Source: Octopus vulgaris
Lineage: Eukaryota
Direction: 5' to 3'
DNA length: 64,000 bases
Assembly: GCA_951406725.2 (NCBI GenBank)
Contig: OX597814.1
Span: 31,000,001 to 31,064,000 of the forward strand
Position 1 is the stretch's first letter. The number at the start of each line of letters is the position of its first letter. The notes beneath the pieces are model-generated. The model was given only the letters and a program-made list of their open reading frames with translations. It did no database searches and was not told the origin of the DNA. The translations under genes were made by a program, and so were the position numbers. This document shows, one piece after another, positions 3,385 to 62,092 of the stretch.

Positions 3385-5210
3385 TGCAAAAAAACAACAA
3401 CAAAAGACGAAGACAGGTGGTGTAGACAACAAACAGATGTATTAGTTTAACGCTCGGTAAGTGAGAAAGTCTTTTACGTTTCGAGCCTAAGCTTTTCGAC
3501 AGAACGGAACACAGAAAGAAACAGGGAGAGAAAATAAAAAAATTATTAGTGGCTAGAGACCAATCATGGCGAATGCCGGACAGAGGGGTCACACGGATAA
3601 CGTTTAAAATTCAAATTTGCTTTTTAAAGATTTTTTTAATCTTTGATTTACAGACATATACATATACAATATATACATATATCTACACAATACTCATATT
3701 TGCATGCATGTACATACTCATACACTCACATACACAACACACAGCACATGCACAGACGTACACACACATACATCTACACATACGTACACACGTATCAATC
3801 TATGTACGCTCATACTGTTATATATAACTACATATATGTATTTCAGTATCATGCATCTCAACATGTATGTAAGGATTTCGACATGTAAATGAGAGAAAGT
3901 GGCGGTTATAGAGAGGTACTCCTGAGTGGAATATGGGTGTTAACCCATTCGGATTTACGGTTGAGAGTTTTGTATTCTTGTATACAGACAGCTTCAGTGA
4001 CTTGTCTCACCATTGCATCAGTGGGATGTGTAGATAAGATGTTTAACTTGAGTCTCCTTAAAAAGCCCTTGTGGCAGTCTACAGCATGCTGAAAGAAGAT
4101 GGATTTTGATTTCTTTTCAATGTAGTTGTCCAGGTGTTCTTTGAGCCTATCATTTATGCTCCTACAAGTCTCACCAATATATGACTCTTGGATAACGCGC
4201 ATGCTCCTTCTTGGTACTTAATTTGGTAAACAGTGTTCTTCGTTTTGCAGTTCACATGTGGGTTTGTAGAACGTATTGCACAATTATTCTGACACGTGAT
4301 TCTAGCAAATGGATATGATCTACTTAATACAGATTTGATAGTCCTACCCGTATATTCTACAACTTTGATCTTAAGGCCAGTTGTGCGCAGGATTTTCTTA
4401 AATGCCTTACTTACTTCGTTCTTAGGTGTAGCGTCAACAAACATTACAATGTGAAACTTCTTGTTATCATACCAAGTATTGTTTTTATTTCTTTCGTTGT
4501 TGTCCGTCTCCAACCTTTTCCAGAACTTGTTGTGGTATAGGGGGCATATACCGTTTTCGTCATCTCTTAGAATACGTTCGAATTTTGTTTTCGCTCATTT
4601 GTACACTCTGATTCTATCGTATTGTGTGTATCCGGAACGTTGCATTCGGAATATGTAGTGCTGGATGTGTTGTTGTCGTTCTTGTGGTTAGCATAGTGGG
4701 GATACATTCCTCATTACTCTAACTAAGTCTGCCACCAGGATGTTGATCTTGGTAGTACTCGACATCGCTGAGTCACTGCGGATTACCAGTGGATTAGCCA
4801 TAGGTTTACAATAGTGTGAGAGGATTAAACAGGGTTTAACAGTTATATTAATCATAGTATTTTCTATCCACAGCTCAGTATCGTGGACTGGCAATCTATA
4901 ACTGGGGCGTTTAGAGGGGTTGTCTACGGTAACCTATGCTATGGATAGAGTCAGCTGTGTGTCGTATAGCTGTCATCACCTGTTCTTCATTTAATAGTGT
5001 CCATACGTGTATTACTATTACTTTTCACAAGTTTATTATCGTCAACGTATCGAGTGTACATAGCTAAAAGTGGATGTTACGGGTCGCTAGGCACCGTTTA
5101 AAATGTCTGTCCCACCATACCATGAAGAGGTTAGCAACATCACCGGCGATCCAACAGTACCGCTTTTCATCCGTTTATACAATTTATTGTTAAATGTTCA
5201 AATGTAGTTT
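3385..5210 (-). pseudogene. Decayed Penelope-like element (RT C-terminus, linker, GIY-YIG, 3' terminal repeat)
   Basis: RYVDD is encoded at 5038-5052 (-). ORFs 4688-4894, 4154-4513 (CKTKNTVYQI) and 3906-4202 (YIGETCRSINDRLKEH) follow in order. A hammerhead-like terminal repeat lies at 3470-3507. Confidence 0.8.
3470..3507 (-). ncRNA. Minimal hammerhead-like motif (CUGUCGA variant)
   Basis: ccguu-CUGUCGA-AAAGCuuagGCUC-GAAA-CG-UA-aaaga. Same family as 43144-43181 and 57858-57895. Confidence 0.4.
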
Positions 5211-8822: not shown

Positions 8823-9304
8823 CCTTTCTTTTCTTTCCTCTCCTGAACGTCCAATAACACAGTACTTGTGCCACGTCCTCGCGTTGTTGTTTTTTCTTGC
8901 TTGTTCTTATATGGATTGAATATGCATGTATATATGATGTTGTTTTTGTGTCTCCTTTTGACTCAAAGCCGTAGGGCGCCTGTGTCATCCATGTTTTTAA
9001 CCGTTACTGTCTTCAAAAAAGTTTTTTTCGTTTCATGTTCGTCTCTGTTGCGTTGCATTCTTTCCTTCTGGGGCTGGCCGATTCAGAGCGGATCTCAGAA
9101 TTAAACAGCCGAAATCTGCGATGAGGAATCGGTTTCTGACTGAAGAACGAAGGCTTTGAATGACCCGTCTGTCTCTTATGTTCGTCCCTTCGTGTATTTC
9201 ACGTTATTTATTTATGTAAAGGTTTATTATTATATTTTATATATATATATGTATATATATGTATGTATATATATATGTATATATCTATATATGTATGTAT
9301 ATAT

Positions 9305-12300
9305 AACATAAGGGACTAAAGCCATCTGAATATGGCTAGGGACAGGGCAGGGTGGTGGGGGTGTTACTGTTGCATTTAGCCCCAGGCGAACATCGACGTC
9401 ACCAGAAAGGCTCGACACCGTCACGGTGCCCTAAACCTGCAAAGGGAGGTAATTCCCCGATGAAGCGGAAACCACACACGGACCATGGTTTCAAGGTGTA
9501 TTGCCTATCATCGGCGTGTGGTAGGCCTCCGCTTCCTCGACGAATTCTCTCTCTGCAGGATTTTCTTATATAGATTTTCAAGCAAAATAAATTTGCTGAT
9601 TTCGAAAATCTGTTCGAAAGCAATAATAATTCTCTAAAAGGAATATAGACAGTAACTGCTCGACAACATAAGGGACTAAAGCCATCTGAATATGGCTAGG
9701 GACAGGGCAGGGTGGTGGGGGTGTTACTGTTGCATTTAGCCCCAGGCGAACATCGACGTCACCAGAAAGGCTCGACACCGTCACGGTGCCCTAAACCTGC
9801 AAAGGGAGGTAATTCCCCGATGAAGCGGAAACCACACACGGACCATGGTTTCAAGGTGTATTGCCTATCATCGGCGTGTGGTAGGCCTCCGCTTCCTCGA
9901 CGAATTCTCTCTCTGCAGGATTTTCTTATATAGATTTTCAAGCAAAATAAATTTGCTGATTTCGAAAATCTGTTCGAAAGCAATAATAATTCTCTAAAAG
10001 GAATATAGACAGTAACTGCTCGACAACATAAGGGACTAAAGCCATCTGAATATGGCTAGGGACAGGGCAGGGTGGTGGGGGTGTTACTGTTGCATTTAGC
10101 CCCAGGCGAACATCGACGTCACCAGAAAGGCTCGACACCGTCACGGTGCCCTAAACCTGCAAAGGGAGGTAATTCCCCGATGAAGCGGAAACCACACACG
10201 GACCATGGTTTCAAGGTGTATTGCCTATCATCGGCGTGTGGTAGGCCTCCGCTTCCTCGACGAATTCTCTCTCTGCAGGATTTTCTTATATAGATTTTCA
10301 AGCAAAATAAATTTGCTGATTTCGAAAATCTGTTCGAAAGCAATAATAATTCTCTAAAAGGAATATAGACAGTAACTGCTCGACAACATAAGGGACTAAA
10401 GCCATCTGAATATGGCTAGGGACAGGGCAGGGTGGTGGGGGTGTTACTGTTGCATTTAGCCCCAGGCGAACATCGACGTCACCAGAAAGGCTCGACACCG
10501 TCACGGTGCCCTAAACCTGCAAAGGGAGGTAATTCCCCGATGAAGCGGAAACCACACACGGACCATGGTTTCAAGGTGTATTGCCTATCATCGGCGTGTG
10601 GTAGGCCTCCGCTTCCTCGACGAATTCTCTCTCTGCAGGATTTTCTTATATAGATTTTCAAGCAAAATAAATTTGCTGATTTCGAAAATCTGTTCGAAAG
10701 CAATAATAATTCTCTAAAAGGAATATAGACAGTAACTGCTCGACAACATAAGGGACTAAAGCCATCTGAATATGGCTAGGGACAGGGCAGGGTGGTGGGG
10801 GTGTTACTGTTGCATTTAGCCCCAGGCGAACATCGACGTCACCAGAAAGGCTCGACACCGTCACGGTGCCCTAAACCTGCAAAGGGAGGTAATTCCCCGA
10901 TGAAGCGGAAACCACACACGGACCATGGTTTCAAGGTGTATTGCCTATCATCGGCGTGTGGTAGGCCTCCGCTTCCTCGACGAATTCTCTCTCTGCAGGA
11001 TTTTCTTATATAGATTTTCAAGCAAAATAAATTTGCTGATTTCGAAAATCTGTTCGAAAGCAATAATAATTCTCTAAAAGGAATATAGACAGTAACTGCT
11101 CGACAACATAAGGGACTAAAGCCATCTGAATATGGCTAGGGACAGGGCAGGGTGGTGGGGGTGTTACTGTTGCATTTAGCCCCAGGCGAACATCGACGTC
11201 ACCAGAAAGGCTCGACACCGTCACGGTGCCCTAAACCTGCAAAGGGAGGTAATTCCCCGATGAAGCGGAAACCACACACGGACCATGGTTTCAAGGTGTA
11301 TTGCCTATCATCGGCGTGTGGTAGGCCTCCGCTTCCTCGACGAATTCTCTCTCTGCAGGATTTTCTTATATAGATTTTCAAGCAAAATAAATTTGCTGAT
11401 TTCGAAAATCTGTTCGAAAGCAATAATAATTCTCTAAAAGGAATATAGACAGTAACTGCTCGACAACATAAGGGACTAAAGCCATCTGAATATGGCTAGG
11501 GACAGGGCAGGGTGGTGGGGGTGTTACTGTTGCATTTAGCCCCAGGCGAACATCGACGTCACCAGAAAGGCTCGACACCGTCACGGTGCCCTAAACCTGC
11601 AAAGGGAGGTAATTCCCCGATGAAGCGGAAACCACACACGGACCATGGTTTCAAGGTGTATTGCCTATCATCGGCGTGTGGTAGGCCTCCGCTTCCTCGA
11701 CGAATTTCTCTCTGCAGGATTTTCTTATATAGATTTTCAAGCAAAATAAATTTGCTGATTTCGAAAATCTGTTCGAAAGCAATAATAATTCTCTAAAAGG
11801 AATATAGACAGTAACTGCTCGACAACATAAGGGACTAAAGCCATCTGAATATGGCTAGGGACAGGGCAGGGTGGTGGGGGTGTTACTGTTGCATTTAGCC
11901 CCAGGCGAACATCGACGTCACCAGAAAGGCTCGACACCGTCACGGTGCCCTAAACCTGCAAAGGGAGGTAATTCCCCGATGAAGCGGAAACCACACACGG
12001 ACCATGGTTTCAAGGTGTATTGCCTATCATCGGCGTGTGGTAGGCCTCCGCTTCCTCGACGAATTCTCTCTCTGCAGGATTTTCTTATATAGATTTTCAA
12101 GCAAAATAAATTTGCTGATTTCGAAAATCTGTTCGAAAGCAATAATAATTCTCTAAAAGGAATATAGACAGTAACTGCTCGACAACATAAGGGACTAAAG
12201 CCATCTGAATATGGCTAGGGACAGGGCAGGGTGGTGGGGGTGTTACTGTTGCATTTAGCCCCAGGCGAACATCGACGTCACCAGAAAGGCTCGACACCGT

Positions 12301-12583
12301 CACGGTGCCCTAAACCTGCAAAGGGAGGTAATTCCCCGATGAAGCGGAAACCACACACGGACCATGGTTTCAAGGTGTATTGCCTATCATCGGCGTGTGG
12401 TAGGCCTCCGCTTCCTCGACGAATTCTCTCTCTGCAGGATTTTCTTATATAGATTTTCAAGCAAAATAAATTTGCTGATTTCGAAAATCTGTTCGAAAGC
12501 AATAATAATTCTCTAAAAGGAATATAGACAGTAACTGCTCGACAACATAAGGGACTAAAGCCATCTGAATATGGCTAGGGACA
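9305..12583 (-). mobile_element. Tandem array of 360-bp hammerhead-containing units (putative non-LTR retrozyme), about 9.1 copies, ribozyme sense on the minus strand
   Basis: Exact 360-bp periodicity, with a single 1-nt deletion near 11707. Hammerheads at 9475-9520, 9835-9880, 10195-10240, 10555-10600, 10915-10960, 11275-11320, 11635-11680, 11994-12039 and 12354-12399. Confidence 0.8.
9475..9520 (-). ncRNA. Minimal type I hammerhead ribozyme (first of 9 minus-strand copies)
   Basis: CACACG-CCGAUGA-uAGGcaauacaCCUu-GAAA-C-CAUG-GUC^-CGUGUG. Confidence 0.75.
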
Positions 12584-13707
12584 CGAGCAGTTACTGTCTA
12601 TATTCCTTTTAGAGAATTATTATTGCTTTCGAACAGATTTTCGAAATCAGCAAATTTATTTTGCTTGAAAATCTATATAAGAAAATCCTGCAGAGAGAGA
12701 ATTCGTCGAGGAAGCGGAGGCCTACTCACACGCCGATGATAGGCAATACACCTTGAAACCATGGTCCGTGTGTGGTTTCCGCTTCATCGGGGAATTACCT
12801 CCCTTTGCAGGTTTAGGGCACCGTGACGGTGTCGAGCCTTTCTGGTGACGTCGATGTTCGCCTGGGGCTAAATGCAACAGTAACACCCCCACCACCCTGC
12901 CCTGTCCCTAGCCATATTCAGATGGCTTTAGTCCCTTATGTTGTCGAGCAGTTACTGTCTATATTCCTTTTAGAGAATTATTATTGCTTTCGAACAGATT
13001 TTCGAAATCAGCAAATTTATTTTGCTTGAAAATCTATATAAGAAAATCCTGCAGAGAGAGAATTCGTCGAGGAAGCGGAGGCCTACCACACGCCGATGAT
13101 AGGCAATACACCTTGAAACCATGGTCCGTGTGTGGTTTCCGCTTCATCGGGGAATTACCTCCCTTTGCAGGTTTAGGGCACCGTGACGGTGTCGAGCCTT
13201 TCTGGTGACGTCGATGTTCGCCTGGGGCTAAATGCAACAGTAACACCCCCACCACCCTGCCCTGTCCCTAGCCATATTCAGATGGCTTTAGTCCCTTATG
13301 TTGTCGAGCAGTTACTGTCTATATTCCTTTTAGAGAATTATTATTGCTTTCGAACAGATTTTCGAAATCAGCAAATTTATTTTGCTTGAAAATCTATATA
13401 AGAAAATCCTGCAGAGAGAGAATTCGTCGAGGAAGCGGAGGCCTACCACACGCCGATGATAGGCAATACACCTTGAAACCATGGTCCGTGTGTGGTTTCC
13501 GCTTCATCGGGGAATTACCTCCCTTTGCAGGTTTAGGGCACCGTGACGGTGTCGAGCCTTTCTGGTGACGTCGATGTTCGCCTGGGGCTAAATGCAACAG
13601 TAACACCCCCACCACCCTGCCCTGTCCCTAGCCATATTCAGATGGCTTTAGTCCCTTATGTTGTCGAGCAGTTACTGTCTATATTCCTTTTAGAGAATTA
13701 TTATTGC

Positions 13708-13708
<1 letters not shown>
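12584..13708 (+). mobile_element. Inverted block of the same 360-bp unit, about 3.1 copies, ribozyme sense on the plus strand
   Basis: Reverse complement of the left block, starting at cgagcagttactgt (12584) and ending in (TA)n at 13709. Hammerheads at 12727-12772, 13087-13132 and 13447-13492. A 1-nt insertion lies at about 12726. Confidence 0.8.
13087..13132 (+). ncRNA. Minimal type I hammerhead ribozyme (plus-strand copy), predicted cleavage after 13126
   Basis: Stem I 13087-92/13127-32; core CCGAUGA 13093-99; stem II AGG/CCU; GAAA 13115-18; stem III AC-CAUG-GU; GUC triplet 13124-26. Confidence 0.75.
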
Positions 13709-13783
<75 letters not shown>

Positions 13784-13789
13784 TGTATG

Positions 13790-13821
<32 letters not shown>

Positions 13822-13822
13822 C

Positions 13823-13894
<72 letters not shown>

Positions 13895-13980
13895 GTATAT
13901 ATATATACATATATATATATATGTATATATATATATGTATATATATATGTATGTATGTATATATATATATGTATAAGTAT
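13709..13980. repeat. (TA)n microsatellite flanking the array
   Basis: Direct reading; a similar tract lies at 9230-9304 on the left. Confidence 0.95.
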
Positions 13981-15164
13981 GTATATGTATGCATGCATGT
14001 ATGCGTATGTTTTGGGGTGTGTATGTCTTTGTGTTTGTATTGTGTTTGTCTCCCATCACGCTTTGGCAACCAGAATTTTCTGCGACAGTGATGTCGCACA
14101 AAAGAGAGCATTAATTGCAAGAAATGTACAATGAATTACATCAACTTCTTCATTTAGTATTTATTTTACTGACTTCTCTAATCAATGTTTTTCGAATCTT
14201 AAATTATGAACTGTGAAATCGATTTTGATCAAGTTTGAACTATGAAAGAAGCAGTAATTATTACATTTAAAGTTACATGACTCAATCAATCTCTCCAAAA
14301 ATATAATAATTGTTTCTAATTAAGGCGCAAAATTATAAATTTGAAAGATGGGTATAAGGGTTAGACAGCTGCCAATATCTGAACGGTACTTTATTTTGAT
14401 AAAATCCTGCAGCCATTTGAATTCAGAATAGGAAGAATACTTTAAACAGATTGTACGTTATTTACTATACTGCTATTCTATCATCCTTCTCGATAAAATT
14501 CTAATATTCAAAACCATCATAAACACAAATGAGACATTTTTAAACAACAAAAAGAAGAAAAAACAAAATAATAGCAACATAAATAACAAGAGCGGCAGCA
14601 GTACCACTAACCACAAGAATAACTACTGCAACCAAAAATTTATAATATTAACAGATCTGAAGTTTTATGCAAGTGAACTTGATCATATTAAAATATCTGT
14701 GGGGAATTTTCTATTTAGCCAATTCATTGGCCAAATTCACTGGTCGCCATTTTGAATGAAATGAAATGCTATCAAAATTGCCGCAGGATATAGTGTGTGA
14801 AAACTTCAGAAACCCGTCTTCATAACATTTAAATCACTCTCGATAAATGGACTAATAGCTTTATTATCATGAGATAACTACTGGAAAATGTTATTATTGC
14901 TGCTGAAGTTGTTTAGCCACAGGTGATTCTTGGTTGGGATAATCTACGATCAAAAGTGTTTTAATTGCAAACATCCTATTTTTTTTATGTAACTTTGTTG
15001 CATGTAAGAGACACGGTTACGGTTTGGAAGAGACTAGGCTACTATTTCAAGCAAGTAGGTAATTATGTGGAAGCTTTGTGATTGGTTGAAAAGGCTCTCT
15101 CATGGGTGGTCGAGGTCACCAGTTGTCGAGCTAGACTGACGAAAGTGAGAATGGTATCTTTATG

Positions 15165-33629: not shown

Positions 33630-34420
33630 AAAGGCGGCAAGCTACCAGATTCATTTGCAGGCTAGGAAAAGTGCATAGCGACATTTCGTCCGTCTTTAAT
33701 TTCTGAGTTCATTCCGCCGAACTTGGCTTTGCCTTTCATACACTTGGGGTCGATAAAATATGTACCAGTTGAGCAGTGGGTGGATGTAATCGACTTCCTC
33801 TCTTCCCCGAAATTGCTGGCCTTGTGCCATAATTTGAAACCAGTCGATTAGATCAACCCCAGTACGCAACTGGTGCTTAAGTGTTCGACCACGAAAGGAT
33901 GAAAGGTAAAGTCGACTTTGGCGGAATTTGAACACAGAACGTAAAGACAGACGAAATACCTATTTCTTTATTACCCACAAGAGACTAAACATAGAGGGGA
34001 CAAACAAGGACAGACAGGTAATAAGTCGATTACATCGACCCCAGTGCGGAACTGGTACTTATTTAATCGACCCCGAAAGCATGAAAGGCAAAGTCGTCCT
34101 TGGCGGAATTTGAACTCACAACGTAACAGCAGACGAAATACCTATTTCTTTACTACCCACAAGGGGCTAAACACAGAGAGGACAAACAAGGACAGACAAA
34201 CGGATTAAGTCGGTTATATCGACCCCAGTGTGTAACTGATACTTATTTAATCGACCCCGAAAGGATGAAAGGCAAAGTCGACCTCGGCAGAATTTGAACT
34301 CAGAACGTAGCGCAGACGAAATACTGCTAAGCATTTCGCCCGACGTGCTAACGTTTCTGCCAGTTGGCCGCCTTAACGTAAAGACAGACGAAATACCGCT
34401 AAGCATTTCGCCCGGCGTGC
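33630..34420. mobile_element. Cluster of a second tRNA-derived SINE family (OR1-like, Nin-type central domain): one + copy then several nested - fragments
   Basis: Repeated tcgaccccgaaaggatgaaaggcaaagtcgacctcggcagaatttgaactcagaacgta, the reverse complement of 46135-46310. Confidence 0.8.
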
Positions 34421-46496: not shown

Positions 46497-47333
46497 CTAT
46501 CATGTGTGTGTGTGTGAGACGTTGTATTTGCTTCGAATACTCGTGTGTTTTATTAACTGTAAACCTAGGTTTACTAGTTATGGGATTGGCAACAGAAAGT
46601 GCATCCAACTTAAGAAATATCTGCTCCAACACTCTCTCGTCTGACACAGGCAAGTATGTAGAATTAAACTTGAAAATAATTAAGCTGTACGTATTCATTT
46701 CACTTCCAAAACTTTTCCAGTTTTGTATTTTAATTCAATTAAGTTATAAAGTGTCTATGAAATGTGGGTGTCCACTACTCTGATATTCTACTGCTATATG
46801 TCGTCAAAATTTGTAATTTTGAGCAAGTTTGACTGTGTATGGGTGTTCAGCTTTTACTGAGCAACCTACACAAATGATTTGTTCATTGCGATCAAATGTA
46901 TGCGCTGCACATTAGCCCACTCTCTCCATCAAATCGACGTTTCTTGAACAGTTGCTCAGTGTACCATATGACAGTTGTGGAAGTGATCAGAGAGTAATGT
47001 GAGATGAAATGCTTTACTGAAGAACTCAACGTAGCACCCAGACCTGTAATTAAAACCAAGATCGTAATACAACATCCTAACCCCTAGACCAAGTGCTCTT
47101 ACGTATATATATATATATAAATATATATAAATAGGTGAATGAATTATCCTATGTTTATCGTCAGCATGGAAAATTCGTTTAACCGAAACCTGGGTAGCAA
47201 ATTCACGTCAGAAACACGGTTGAAGCGACCTGTCCAAAGGTAGAAACTCAGGGTTCATATGCAGAAATTTGTGTGTTGTATATGAATAAATGAAAGAATG
47301 GAGTCGAACGAAGATGGTAACAAAATTCCTTTA

Positions 47334-47415
47334 CTCTCGACATATGTTTCGAAGACAACATGGTTTCATTCCAAAGGAATAAATGGTGCATTATGCAATC
47401 TTCTCATCAGGAAAG
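47334..47415 (-). ncRNA. Canonical minimal type I hammerhead ribozyme
   Basis: CUUUC-CUGAUGA-GAAGAUUGCAU...AUGUUGUCUUC-GAAA-C-AUAU-GUC^-GAGAG. The core is intact and loop III is palindromic. Confidence 0.85.
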
Positions 47416-47869
47416 AAATTCTAGATATAATTCTATTATCAATTCCCACATAGTCAGAATCGCTTTCTCTAACACTAGAAATCTTTCACAAATTATATCT
47501 TCTCACAATAACAAGCTGCTAAACAAAGATTCTTCACCCGGGAGTTCCAACACTAATCTTGCTAATTCCAACCCATCATACAATCATAATAATAGGAATA
47601 GTATTAATAGTAACAGCATTGGTAGCAGCGAAAGTGTTAACAATGATAATATTAATAATAGTATTAGTCGTGTTAATAACAATGGTAATGTTGATGGTAA
47701 TAACAATAACGGTATTATTGACGGTGGTATTACTGGTTGAATTACCATTAATAATACTAATAATAATAGAAATAGTGTAGTTGTTGGCGCTAATAATAAT
47801 AGTAACAACAATCACAGCAATAAAAACTTCGTTTCGATCTCGGAGGACAACCCCGACAGAATTAAATTT

Positions 47870-48259
47870 TTGTCTAGTAATTCTAAGATTAAGAATTCTA
47901 TTTACCAGTGTAGAATTTCTTCCGGTACCGATGTCTTCTTCTATATAGGAGCGTCCACTTCCCAGTTATCCAAGAGAATTTCAAACCATTATTCAACATT
48001 CAGGGATAGTAAAAAACGACATAGTACAGGGCTAAGTAAATTAGTTTGGCGGTTTAAAGACAACAATATAAATTTCAAGTTAGATTGGTTCATACTGTCT
48101 GTATCCTTTCCTTTTGATAAGGGCAGGAGATTTTGTAACATTTGCAACTCTGAACTCTTCCATATTCTCTTCTCTAAGGTTCCCCTTGTAAACACACTCA
48201 GAGAAAAATCATACAAATGTAAACACTGGCAGAAACATACTTTCTACTCATATAAATGA
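47870..48259 (+). pseudogene. GIY-YIG endonuclease domain of the Penelope-like element
   Basis: Open 129-aa frame with GIY-YIG and C-terminal Cys/His motifs; the upstream RT is missing. Confidence 0.85.
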
Positions 48260-48536
48260 TAACGATAGTCACTGTGGTTTGAACAATTAGCTTAACGTTC
48301 ACCCCACTTCAATAGCAAAATTCTTTCCTAAGCCTTCGAACATTCTTTCAATCAACGTACCCTTCCCTCTCCACTTGTTCCCTACCTATTATTCCTTTAA
48401 CCCTTCTCTTCCTAATATCTATCTTTGAAGTCAATTCTTCTAACGGTTTTTTAAAAAACACTCATTATCGTTTTGTTTACCATGTGGGCAGTCATCGAAA
48501 TTTTTGTTTGTCTTGTTGTCGAGAGAGGGTCCCTTT

Positions 48537-48618
48537 CTTTCCTGATGAGAAGATTGCATAATGCACCATTTATTCCTTTGGAATGAAACCATGTTGTCTC
48601 CGAAACATATGTCGAGAG
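48537..48618 (+). ncRNA. Minimal type I hammerhead ribozyme in the 3' terminal repeat
   Basis: Same as 47334-47415 with one extra stem II mismatch. CTGATGA at 48542, GAAA at 48602, GTC at 48611-13. Confidence 0.8.
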
Positions 48619-48660
48619 TAAAGGAATTTTGTTAACATCTTCGTTCGACTCTATTCTTTC

Positions 48661-48708
<48 letters not shown>

Positions 48709-54289: not shown

Positions 54290-56280
54290 TTATTAATGAA
54301 TAGAATTATTACATCATGCGAAGAAAAACGTGAATGCATGCTTGAATTAATCATTTCAAGAGATTTTGAAATACAAGTAGGTGCCAAACCTTGTATAACA
54401 ATGATCTACTACACTAAATCTGACTTGGTTCGAATTAGTAAGTGCATTATCAACAGAATTCTACCCCTAGTTAAGTCTAAGGTTAAGCTTCCGCTTTGGA
54501 ATTGCACTGGTGACGTTATCATCTTTCTGAAAAACAGCACACCCATTTCCTCCAGTTTGACACCTCCAATTACAGTTGTTCCATATCACCAATTCTCTTC
54601 AATAAAGCCTTAATCTCGCTCGAAACTACGAACCTATATCACGATCTGACATTGATATCATCCTGGCTGCTAGGAAAACTCTAATCCACTTCAAAGATAA
54701 TTACTAGACCTGCAACGCATCTACCGATTTCTTCGATATAACCATGGTCTCCTCTGACTCAGCTTATTTGACTTAACCTATTCCTTCTTTTCCCAATTAA
54801 ACAATACTCCTCTAAATCTCTTCGGAGGACACTGGAGTGATGATGCACTCCTTAAACCCTTTGAATTATCTCGACCTTCTGTGGAACGCATCAATAAAGC
54901 CCTACATAATCTCTTTAAAAACTACAACCTAAGTATCTCATTGGAGAACGACACTAAGGTGGCCAATTTCTTAGACGTTACTCTGGACTTCAATGCAAAT
55001 CTATATCCCCATTTCAAAAATCCCAGTCAATCTCTAAAATACATAAACGTCCTATCAAATTACTTTAAACTTACCCTTAATCGTGTAGTCACAGGCATTT
55101 GTATCAGAATCTCCAATAAAGAAATTTTTATCAATCATGCCCCGTATCATAACCAGGCTCTAAAGATAAGTGGCTTCTGCGAAAAGATCTCATATATCCC
55201 CAATACTATGCTTAAAACAAAATTTGCTCATCTCTTGCCTAATACTGACCCCGAACCCCCACTGATCTTTCTTCCACTCAACGACAATCCATCAGCTCAT
55301 AAAAAAAAAACTATGCATCGCACTCGACAGCCCCACGAGCCACCTCGAACCTATAATAACTATAATCCTCCCTATCTAGACTCACTCTATCCACACGCTC
55401 TAAACATTCTAAGGGCAGGAAATGAGAGATCAAATGGTTCACATCACCTTACTCACTTTAAGTTAAATCTCTACCCAAAATTTTCTTTAAAATCCTAAAA
55501 TCTAACTTCCAACCACAGCATAAATTCTACCTTACTTTTAATAGATCATCTGTTAAACTCTTCTATCTACCACACCTAATTTGGGATCTATAATTGCTTC
55601 CTCTAACAGACAAAAACTACAATTTGTCCGGCTGAACATTGCTGTCACCCATCTAGTGGCAATAATCCACTCGACTAAATAATAACAGATCGAAGGCATC
55701 TTCCATACAATACTACCTATATGACCACATATACTAATGATCATACCCCCTCCTAATTCAAAACTTATACCGATGATATCTCCAGTTCTTCTTTACTAAA
55801 AACGGACTATTGGAACTTGACCTTCTCAGTGGTAAACTCCAACCAAAGAGCAGGTAGGAAAACTTGCAATTGTTGGGTAACTCATAGTCTACATGTACCG
55901 TGTAGACTACATGTAGACACATACTCTACATGTGCTACGCTCCCTCAAAGCAAAGGTCTATATCAGTGGTATAATGTCAATTTCAAGCGACGCTATCGAG
56001 CACACATGAATATATCTGTAATCCAAATTCTAAATTATCTATCCCCTTAGAAACTTACATACACACCCTCAAATCCCAAAATGTTCTCTATACACTATCC
56101 TGGTCCATCGTAAGCGAGGCACCCCGATACAACGCAAACATCTGTATTTGTAAATTGTGTGTAAGGGAATTGCTAACCATCCTTCGCAACCCCTCATTAA
56201 TTGATAGATTCTCAGATGTAATACTCTCTTTTATACATAAGTGCTACTCATCATTTGCCCATTTTATTAAATCTATGTAA
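54290..56280 (+). pseudogene. Decayed Penelope-like element (RT and GIY-YIG remnants)
   Basis: KSDLVRISKCIINRI, an xxDDAL-like segment at about 54835, VANFLDVTLD...KYINVLSN (ORF 54881-55498), and C-terminal WSIV...Y...CKLCVRE at about 56100-56170. Confidence 0.75.
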
Positions 56281-57933: not shown

Positions 57934-58767
57934 ATACTTTGATACTTTGATACTTTGATAGGTTTCGGCCATTATTGGCCCAGGCCATGTCTAACTTAAT
58001 AGCATCACCTGGTGAAGTCTTTCAAGTCAGAATTTGGGCACTATGGCCCACTCAAGTAGAGAGTTATTGTTTACAGAGGCATATCCGGGTGTAGGGGGTT
58101 TATCCGGGATTTCTTGAAGGAATCTGTCCAAAGACTTCTTGAACCCTATAGGGTCAGTTTCTGTTTTAATGTGTTTTGGTGTAATGTTAAAGAGAGCGGG
58201 GCCAATTGAGGTGAAATAATTGTGCCGTATTGTTGTTATGAGATGAGAGTGCGATTTTTGTTTTGGGCGGATGGCACGGGGCCCAAGCCTTGGATGTACC
58301 TTAAAGGTGATGCCAACATCATTTGGGCAATGCTGATGGAATATTTTCCACATCATGCAGATGATGTAGCGCTCACGACGACGTTGGAGAGAATAGAGTT
58401 TTAGCTTTTCTAGTCGACCCCAATAGTCGAGGCCTGTCATGCCATCTATCTTTTTTGTGATTGCCCTTTGAGGTGCTTCGACTTTTTTGATACCTTGTAT
58501 TGTGTGGGGAGACCACAGTGGACAACAGTATTCAAGGTGGGGTCGGGCAAAAGTGGAGAAGAGAAGGATAATGGTGTGGATATCTCTCGACTGGAAAGTT
58601 CTGAGAATCCAGGAACACATTCTGCGGGCCATGTCAACTTTGGTGTTTATATGAGTGGCCCAGCTTACGTTGTTGTCCACAATTACTCCCAAGTCTCTGA
58701 TGTTGTTGGACGCCGCACTTACGTTGTTGTCCACAATTACTCCCAAGTCTCTGATGTTGTCTCTGAT
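57934..58767 (-). mobile_element. 5'-truncated CR1/L2/Jockey-group LINE (ORF2 C-terminus) with a tandem 3' tail
   Basis: Open frame RDLGVIVD...[14 protein letters not shown]...LKLYSLQRRRERY...FKKSLDRFL..IPD.P, a short 3' UTR and a (tcaaagta)n tail at 57935-57960. Confidence 0.9.
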
Positions 58768-58805
58768 ACATATATATACATACATACATATATATCTTTA
58801 TCTAA

Positions 58806-60547: not shown

Positions 60548-62092
60548 CAGCCACGTAGCCAGCTGATTGCAACTGGGGGTGCTATCTTGATAGCTGGAGG
60601 TGCTGAACGAGGGTACGGACAAAAGCCCCTACTTAAAGTATTAAAGTGGGCTAAAGCCTCATGCTTATATTTTTCGATTATTGTTTTCATTTTTTTTTCA
60701 CATTTCTTGACGCCTAGCCTGGTCAAAACTTCTGATATATTTCGTTTTTATTTTCATTTTACTTGTTGCAATCATTAAACTGAGGCCTTACTGGGGCATC
60801 ACCTCGAAGAATTTTAGTCGAATGTATCGACTCCAATATGTTTTTAAATGGTTTTCAATAAGCACATAGTTAAGCCTAATAGGTCTTTCGACATGCTAGA
60901 GATAACAGCCAAATCTTTAAACATTATTTTTTATATAATTTCAAATAAACATCGACCACGCGGCTGACAGTGTGTCTTCCCAACAATTCAATGATTTCGT
61001 TTTGCATTGCTGCTGAGGTGTAGGTCGCATTTTTTGGAATCGTGCTGTAACATTCCATTACCTTTGAGTCTTTATCTAATGTGTACTGGAATAATTTCAT
61101 AAAGAGACCACAAGGCTGTGTGTCATCTTCTGAATAAAGATCTTGAAAAGCTTCATTTCTGTTTCCTTGAAAAGGCAATTTATTTTCACAAAGAAAATGA
61201 ACAATATCAACAATGGAACTGATATAATAAACGATTTTTGTTCAACTGATCATTTTGCAAGTATGAAGACACGGATGTTGTTGTGGATAAACGCTGTTGG
61301 CATTCCTTCCATGTTACCATAGCTTGGATATGGGATGCAGCGTTTGCGTGCTTCGTTTTGTTTTCTTTTGCATGATGCCAATTAGAATATCCATGTTTGA
61401 TAAAACAATTATCAGCTTGAGCAGAAGTATTAAAGTGCCGGCAAGCAAAACAAAACAAGACTTTCTTTGAAAGAGAATACTCTAAACATAAACGACCAAT
61501 ATACCAGCTTGACAAGAAGTCATTTCTTTGATTTCCATAAATTTTTGGATCAAACTTTTCTAGAAATGGCTGCACTGGTTGGCACTCGACCTGTCCAAGA
61601 TCATCCAATGAGGGTGCCATGCAAGACCTCCCTTGAGCTGCTAAACTGCGTTTGCAATTCTCTTCTGTTTAGCATTATTAGGTGAATCAGATTGGAAATT
61701 CAGCAATGATTGCTTCAGTTCTCTTTTTCGGTAGTGATTCATTATTTTGGGGTACTGATATTTGAAATAATGAATTCTAAGGTAGAATATCGTTGTAAGA
61801 GTAACAATTTCTTAAAATTTATGTATTTTTAAACTAAACTCGTAAGAAATTTAAGTCCAAGTATTTTCCCCCTACTTCTTCATAGTTATGCTTTTTTAGT
61901 TAAACACAAAATGATTTCAGTATAAATTTTGTCCAAAGAAATAAGAAAAATTATTCAGTGAAAGTTCTCCCCTGAAAAATCCTTTCTGAATGTATATTTT
62001 GGGAAATTTCAAAAATTTTCTTTCCTTTATCGTGAATAATAATCCTCTTTGACTAGTAGATATAAAATGACTTTTTAATGTCCGTCTCTGTT

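Follow-up and report, generated by a model that had tools for sequence, protein, structure and literature searches.

Two-armed insertions of a hammerhead-motif repeat in Octopus vulgaris and their probable Penelope-type origin

Our analysis concerns a tandem repeat with a 360-nt unit in a 64,000-nt stretch of the Octopus vulgaris genome, referred to here as the window (assembly GCA_951406725.2, contig OX597814.1, forward strand, 31,000,001-31,064,000). The array changes strand partway along its length. This inversion is real and is the normal form of the element rather than a local accident. Judging from its sequence, the array is likely one insertion of a hammerhead-motif repeat, a non-LTR (long terminal repeat) retrozyme, into a (TA)n target. 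At nearly all inverted loci examined in the family, the two arms diverge and end at two different fixed sites of the unit, A and B. We propose that the arms are probably made by a Penelope-like reverse transcriptase (RT) with a GIY-YIG endonuclease, which would nick both target strands and copy one circular RNA from each nick.

The window array and its repeat unit

Coordinates are those of the window, and unit positions are counted on 13303-13662 of the plus strand, in the ribozyme sense. The array and its surroundings comprise the following features.

9238-9304, no strand: (TA)n target, left part, seen in the sequence
9305-12583, minus strand: left arm, 9.11 units of the 360-nt repeat; in the ribozyme sense its 3' end is site A (unit position 360) and its 5' end is unit position 321
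12542-12583, no strand: unpaired spacer of 42 nt, the left-arm portion without a mirror in the right arm, next to the blunt junction 12583/12584
12584-13708, plus strand: right arm, 3.12 inverted units, running from unit position 3 (5' end) to site B at unit position 46 (3' end)
13303-13662, plus strand: one full unit, the numbering reference; fold of -123.6 kcal/mol, z -5.9 against shuffles
13445-13496, plus strand: predicted type I hammerhead motif of one unit, predicted cut after 13486
13663-13708, plus strand: 46-nt 'tail' between sites A and B, at the right arm's outer end only
13709-13990, no strand: (TA)n target, right part, seen in the sequence

The original prediction placed an orientation flip at 12583/12584, a 42-nt spacer at 12542-12583, and ribozyme-sense strands that diverge from the junction and run into (TA)n at both outer ends. 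All of this was confirmed. The joint has neither gap nor overlap, the inner ends (unit positions 321 and 3) being joined bluntly, and the spacer was recovered by alignment of the mirrored stretches. The predicted near-perfect inverted repeat is also present, with 1123 of 1127 alignment columns identical between 11417-12541 and 12584-13708, although the length of about 1.1 kb given for its arms holds for the mirrored part only. Two single-unit indels have no mirror counterpart in the other arm. The Rfam matches at the junction are to miRNA models only; they are driven by the hairpin and were rejected.

Every unit contains a type I hammerhead layout at unit positions 143-194, with a predicted cut after position 184. 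Its core reads CCGAUGA...GAAA...GUC, with a U-U at the base of stem II and a palindromic stem III. In 19 distinct versions from this family and a related one described below, 93% of the cells are paired and both-side changes occur in 8 of 16 pairs. These changes include the stem III palindrome and the C3-G8/U3-A8 pair (C-G in 9, U-A in 5, U-G in 5). C3-G8 is a core pair of the hammerhead, and a palindromic stem III is taken as a sign of a dimer. The window has no Rfam match at the gathering score. The array is non-coding: it contains no tRNA, no open reading frame (ORF) of 120 amino acids and no RT plus GIY-YIG ORF of an autonomous Penelope-like element (PLE). The unit has no consensus match to the A and B boxes of RNA polymerase III, only a single loose B-like word.

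The family shows the features of non-LTR retrozymes, namely tandem non-coding units of 360 nt at hundreds of loci, a predicted type I hammerhead in each unit, no LTR, primer-binding site or coding region, and a strongly self-paired unit. By analogy, the unit would cleave itself and form 360-nt circles. Dimeric hammerhead cleavage is stated in PMC7229834. Both the unit and its unit-to-unit join are present in contigs of sequencing runs guessed to be RNA, in which a circle and a tandem look alike.

Outer ends and targets across the family

The survey of other arrays suggested by the original prediction showed that inversion is common and that the targets are mostly (TA)n. Site B lies 46 nt beyond site A in the unit. 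Genome-wide, exact junctions with (TA)4 number 751 for site B and about 540 for site A, the latter being approximate as reverse-strand matches were mostly listed twice. On one contig (C1), both junction lists are complete, with 59 B and 46 A junctions. The ends lie less than 15 kb apart in 30 pairs, and every such pair combines an A with a B in divergent orientation, without any A-A or B-B pair. Mapping of 75 C1 loci plus the window, with one end chosen by the junction pattern, gave 62 inverted loci, 12 single arms and 2 stubs of 18-20 nt. Ends at both A and B were found in 61 of the 62 inverted loci (60 by script and L157 by exact mapping). Two sets chosen by similarity to the whole unit gave A and B in 17 of 18 inverted loci (24 loci in the set) and in 25 of 28 (40 loci). 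The non-redundant total is 136 loci, of which 104 are inverted with diverging arms, 99 of them with one A and one B end. Such a strict rule fits a paired enzyme that primes both strands.

The inner ends are scattered over the unit. They show no excess at the predicted ribozyme cut, with 3 of 148 arm 5' ends at unit position 185 ± 5 (rows L050 and L104 dropped). The insertions resemble Penelope-type copies, in that an inverted 5'-truncated copy stands head to head with the other and a tail separates two fixed 3' ends at one end only. The two stubs (L096 and L108) lie inside (TA)n and terminate exactly at site B. At another locus (L052:4051-4219), the junction is filled with several short unit fragments in scrambled order, which suggests that the template was switched repeatedly while the ends were being joined.

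A sister family with a 352-nt period is 68% identical to this one over 81 nt around A and B, and its ends are at the same aligned positions. Among 27 loci examined after three duplicates were dropped, 13 are inverted; 10 of these have A and B ends and in the other three the second end is eroded. The sister family (L210-L239, e.g. G000:C25:8521127-8522820; also L082:3020-3360) is older and retrozyme-type, with the same hammerhead layout and more non-TA targets.

The targets show a consistent pattern. (TA)4 is present on both sides of 58 of the 62 inverted C1 loci (one side chosen by pattern). Since (TA)4 starts at about 2.5% of background positions, its presence at both ends is not due to chance. 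Where neither flank of an A+B insertion is (TA)n, direct repeats of 12-15 nt (counting any overlap with the ends of the element) were found in all six cases, compared with a longest direct repeat of 11 nt in 240 mismatched flank pairs. Direct repeats of 11-12 nt were found by eye at three further loci, and one eroded non-TA locus has none. AT-rich or (TA)n targets with short target-site duplications (TSDs) are also characteristic of Penelope-type insertion.

These results bear on whether the junction is a fold-back read chimera or a misassembly. The window junction is known from assembled sequence alone, as an artefact would be. However, the flanking sequences are unique and differ from each other, and the arms differ in length and in end site and contain unmirrored indels. 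The same rule holds at about 100 loci with differing junctions and target duplications. In addition, site B is joined to (TA)n in contigs from two other studies, and a joint that changes strand inside the unit occurs in one run. An artefact is extremely unlikely.

Template and mechanism

Variants within the arrays provided insights into the template. In 27 arrays with at least three full units (196 units), a variant sits either in all units of an array or in one unit alone (94 singles). Only 12 calls are in between; these are mostly one-unit masks or recurring indels in simple runs, and one is an arm-discordant call in L052. The two arms of a locus differ at 34 of 3162 diagnostic cells, compared with 26% between loci (row L127 dropped). 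No arm difference is found in 59 of 73 loci, and the 76 full arms comprise 37 haplotypes. Seven array-wide variants were searched genome-wide. All matches lie in the variant's own array for 25C>A (9/9), 78T>C (8/8), 115G with 128G (19/19) and 288A>G (6/6), and the first three are present on both arms. On their own haplotype backgrounds, 212A>G, 30A>G and 120A>G are each confined to one array, the first two with one stray match each on another background.

A change that is carried by every unit of both arms and by no parent copy implies that all of the insertion derives from a single monomer. The simplest source of such insertions would be a circle copied over several rounds, and each insertion likely came from one circular RNA; a circular monomer template has good support in these variants. 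As genomic evidence that a single monomer was copied by a rolling-circle process, the array-wide private variants are nearly direct.

Alternatively, the template could be a multimeric read-through transcript of a parent array, used by two-site priming or by twin priming of the L1 type. In L1 5' inversion by twin priming, the primers come from both target strands, and the second primer can anneal at any position, which then borders the junction. The window junction suggested such a process, as the start of the right arm (position 3) follows the outer end of the left arm (position 360) by 2 nt when counted modulo 360. A coincidence of this type occurs in 6 of 61 C1 loci, against 4.3 expected, and L1-type twin priming was rejected. 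A multimeric template would also require a single-unit bottleneck to explain how a variant comes to occupy every unit of one array and is found nowhere else, and partly spread variants are nearly absent (the 12 calls above). We consider a multimeric template very unlikely.

The kinds of change also differ between the two classes of variants. The spectrum was counted in 101 young loci, 20 of 121 loci being left out as more than 4.5% diverged. Among 22 distinct rare alleles fixed across the copies of a locus, nine are A>G in the ribozyme sense (eight without position 115). Among 104 single-unit changes, six are A>G, and C>T plus G>A account for 46. For the enrichment of A>G in array-wide changes, Fisher p is 8e-5 (4e-4 without position 115), and among these changes A>G outnumbers T>C by 9 to 3 (p 0.04).

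The spectrum helps to evaluate a model in which a monomer is inserted and then expanded, inverted and homogenized at the DNA level by satellite turnover and gene conversion. Such turnover would likewise yield array-wide variants, and local amplification of monomers derived from the pseudo-LTR (pLTR) has been proposed (2026 preprint 10.64898/2026.07.22.740005). However, it leaves fixed A and B ends with variable inner junctions unexplained, half-spread variants are nearly absent, and the array-wide spectrum is unlike that of single-unit mutations, in which C>T plus G>A dominate. This model appears highly improbable.

The A>G excess fits A-to-I editing of the RNA before it was copied into DNA, although this is a hint. 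Five of the nine A>G sites are located within the long stem containing the predicted hammerhead or next to it. Counting against editing, the numbers are small, the test was devised after the first cases had been seen, and three of the A>G sites have a 5' G, a neighbour that is disfavoured by ADAR. The excess is not seen in contigs of the runs guessed to be RNA; their RNA origin is a guess and the result weighs neither way. Editing has been raised as one explanation for unmatched mussel circles (PMC7229834). The original prediction suggested that read-through transcription of the window array would yield a double-stranded hairpin for ADAR or small-RNA pathways. The hint found here points instead to the RNA template, as A>G changes are common to whole arrays, and not to read-through of the window hairpin. 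If it does reflect editing, the A>G excess would represent a countable route from RNA editing to inherited DNA.

Combining these data, the insertion could proceed in five steps. The unit would be transcribed, cleave itself and close into 360-nt circles. The endonuclease would nick both target strands about 12 nt apart, as suggested by the direct repeats of ~12 nt and the (TA)n targets. Site A would then be primed at one nick and site B at the other, one each, in agreement with the observed geometry. As the shared private variants suggest, both RTs would work on the same monomer for several rounds (9.1 and 3.1 turns in the window). Finally, the cDNA ends would stop at variable points and join bluntly or through a few shared bases, giving rise to the inversion.

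The second arm may instead be copied from the first cDNA, if the cDNA of a single Penelope-like RT folds back or the RNA primes itself, rather than by a second priming. Self-priming has been put forward for Penelope inversions (PMC3846280). Fold-back would account for arms sharing a haplotype. The two 5' ends lie within 10 nt of each other at 9 of 61 C1 loci (2.5 expected, p 0.0005) and arm lengths are correlated (rho 0.54), although two RTs travelling together would produce both. On the other hand, fold-back does not explain why the second arm should end precisely at the alternate site and adjoin the target at that point with a duplication. Moreover, 45 of 61 junctions lie more than 20 nt from the mirror position, and the two single-unit indels of the window array are unmirrored. 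Fold-back is therefore unlikely in our assessment, and copying of one circle from two nicks is preferred.

A number of observations weigh against this preferred reading. Five of the 104 inverted loci are off the rule (L050, L104, L242, L244 and L260); two of them, L242 and L260, look A/near-A, and none of the five is B/B. Some arm difference is present in 14 of 73 loci, most of it in diverged subfamilies and near indels. The 120A>G change is also found in 23 loci of another background, and the source copy of the private variants could be missing from a single assembly. The window array carries the most frequent haplotype, so that its derivation from one template is argued from sister loci. The hammerhead versions compared are related by descent, so that their count against shuffles cannot be read as a probability, and the core carries a U4C variant in addition to the U-U pair at the base of stem II. 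A partner element was not found: the three Penelope families examined share no sequence with the unit, and their tails are about 150, 150 and 57 nt, compared with 46 nt here.

The original prediction compared the array with a Penelope copy in the window, placed at 47286-48665, and proposed that a Penelope RT/GIY-YIG enzyme had mobilized the array in trans. The divergent layout of that copy was found, but it starts at 47134, and its left arm has a tail of ~150 nt that likewise ends in (TA)n. For comparison only, its features are as follows.

47134-47421, minus strand: inverted arm of the Penelope-like copy, with a hammerhead at 47339-47410 and a ~150-nt tail into (TA)n at 47104-47133
47422-48665, plus strand: 5'-truncated Penelope-like (Hydra-type) arm, with an Asn-rich linker, a hammerhead at about 48536-48618 and a short end in (TA)n
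47852-48259, plus strand: GIY-YIG-like domain of this copy (E 0.023, below the Pfam cut-off)

Mobilization of the family by a Penelope-type enzyme in trans is very probable, given the divergent arms, the two fixed 3' ends, the (TA)n targets, the direct repeats of ~12 nt and the matching rule of one short and one long end in Penelope families of this genome. The neighbouring copy serves as an analogy only, since its tail is ~150 nt rather than 46 nt, its family is older and broken, and it shares no sequence with the unit; it is probably not the partner. Its family has one short and one long end in all 14 inverted pairs (38 loci examined, some overlapping). The same holds for 5/5 inverted pairs of a young relative with an open 899-amino-acid frame and 2/2 of a young Neptune-type family, a label assigned by eye. 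By the DKT, RW, CxxC and CxH motifs listed in PMC8557442, read by eye, the first two fit the Hydra clade. As partners, all three families were rejected for lack of homology and for their tail lengths. Searches with three Penelope queries yielded about 78 locus stretches (some overlapping), none of them with pLTR homology to the unit, Naiad, Poseidon and other families lying outside this search.

The young Hydra-type family (L170-L180, L186, L189, e.g. G000:C1:119516351-119524108) has many near-identical copies, tandems of ~3.6 kb and a tail of ~150 nt, and has probably been active recently. At 4154-4594 (minus strand), the window contains a Neptune-type fragment whose young relative (L190-L209) has a 1025-amino-acid frame including GIY-YIG and a tail of ~57 nt. 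A short non-coding inverted element (L082:2665-3005), with one short and one long end in (TA)n, resembles a Neptune-type 3' end and is likely a non-autonomous derivative. The Asn-rich linker at 47420-47850, between RT and endonuclease, recalls the Asn-rich inserts in rotifer Penelope ORFs (PMC3846280). An open frame at 54758-55498 (plus strand) resembles a Penelope RT-thumb fragment by eye, with no Pfam support.

The window contains three further features. A 256-amino-acid open frame at 58027-58797 (minus strand) looks by eye like the C-terminal part of a long interspersed element (LINE) RT, contains a short internal duplication and has no Pfam match. A 153-amino-acid frame at 61207-61668 (minus strand) looks by eye like a hAT/ZMYM-type transposase fragment, without Pfam support. 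At 33842-34324, a 182-nt unit is present in 2.6 tandem copies and appears by eye to resemble a short interspersed element (SINE).

We tentatively extend the mechanism to include editing. Each insertion may be a record of one circular RNA, read at once by both RT subunits of a Penelope dimer, one per target strand, 46 nt apart and for up to ~15 turns each. A-to-I edits made by ADAR in the circle would be copied to every unit and enter the germline as a main source of new retrozyme variants. This joint proposal is possible but somewhat less likely than not, and so is its editing part.

Comparison with known systems

How retrozymes move in animals and how Penelope-like inverted copies with a one-sided tail arise are both stated to be open questions in the available literature, and the octopus family ties them together. 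It also provides a 360-nt substrate with mapped start sites for in vitro work. The family seeds hundreds of inverted repeats, which are a possible source of double-stranded RNA; the read-through hairpin of the original prediction would extend to about three quarters of the family loci. Our searches of the open literature returned no account of retrozyme insertions with two arms, of a rule that gives each arm a different end, of haplotypes that point to a single template, or of edits carried over into the DNA of retrozymes; the supplements of PMC7229834 (model figure, TSD examples) and of the preprint (Li et al. 2026) could bear on this novelty.

The unit resembles animal non-LTR retrozymes (Cervera and de la Pena 2020, PMC7229834; Li et al. 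2026 preprint). These are non-coding, strongly self-paired repeats arranged in tandem, with 150-450 bp per unit, and every unit contains a type I hammerhead. The axolotl HHR_Amex2 (350-bp unit, PMC7229834) likewise has a U-U at the base of helix II and a short helix III with a tetraloop. Both papers propose rolling-circle copying by PLEs. Their case for the Penelope link is built on ribozymes in common, co-occurrence and pLTR similarity, whereas no pLTR homology of the octopus unit was found with our three queries. In the parts covered, neither paper mentions insertions with two arms, alternate ends that are fixed or haplotypes from a single template.

The non-autonomous Chlamys PLEs such as MRC1 (PMC8557442, PMC9977147) are also multicopy in head-to-tail arrangement and target microsatellites. 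Their 3' ends are similar to that of their autonomous partner, and their clade is without canonical hammerheads; for the octopus family, the search gave no partner with homology. L1 twin priming also produces inverted insertions from two strands; here, by contrast, both start sites are fixed and the junction is variable.

The family also resembles endonuclease-bearing PLEs (Hydra, Neptune, Naiad, Poseidon; PMC8557442, PMC3846280, PMC11167929), which share the inverted 5'-truncated copy, the tail at one end (30-40 bp, PMC8557442), the (TA)n targets and two adjacent RT starts. In purified form, a lizard Penelope protein, a predicted dimer, cuts both strands of AT-rich sites and extends them; its RT begins at two neighbouring internal positions of the RNA, between which the tail lies (PMC11167929). 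Rotifer copies have TSDs of 8-10 bp (PMC3846280), compared with direct repeats of ~12 nt here. Unlike these elements, the octopus array has no ORF, and each arm is a multimer of the 360-nt unit. The tail in PLEs is described as optional or at either end; in the octopus family it is strictly one per insertion.

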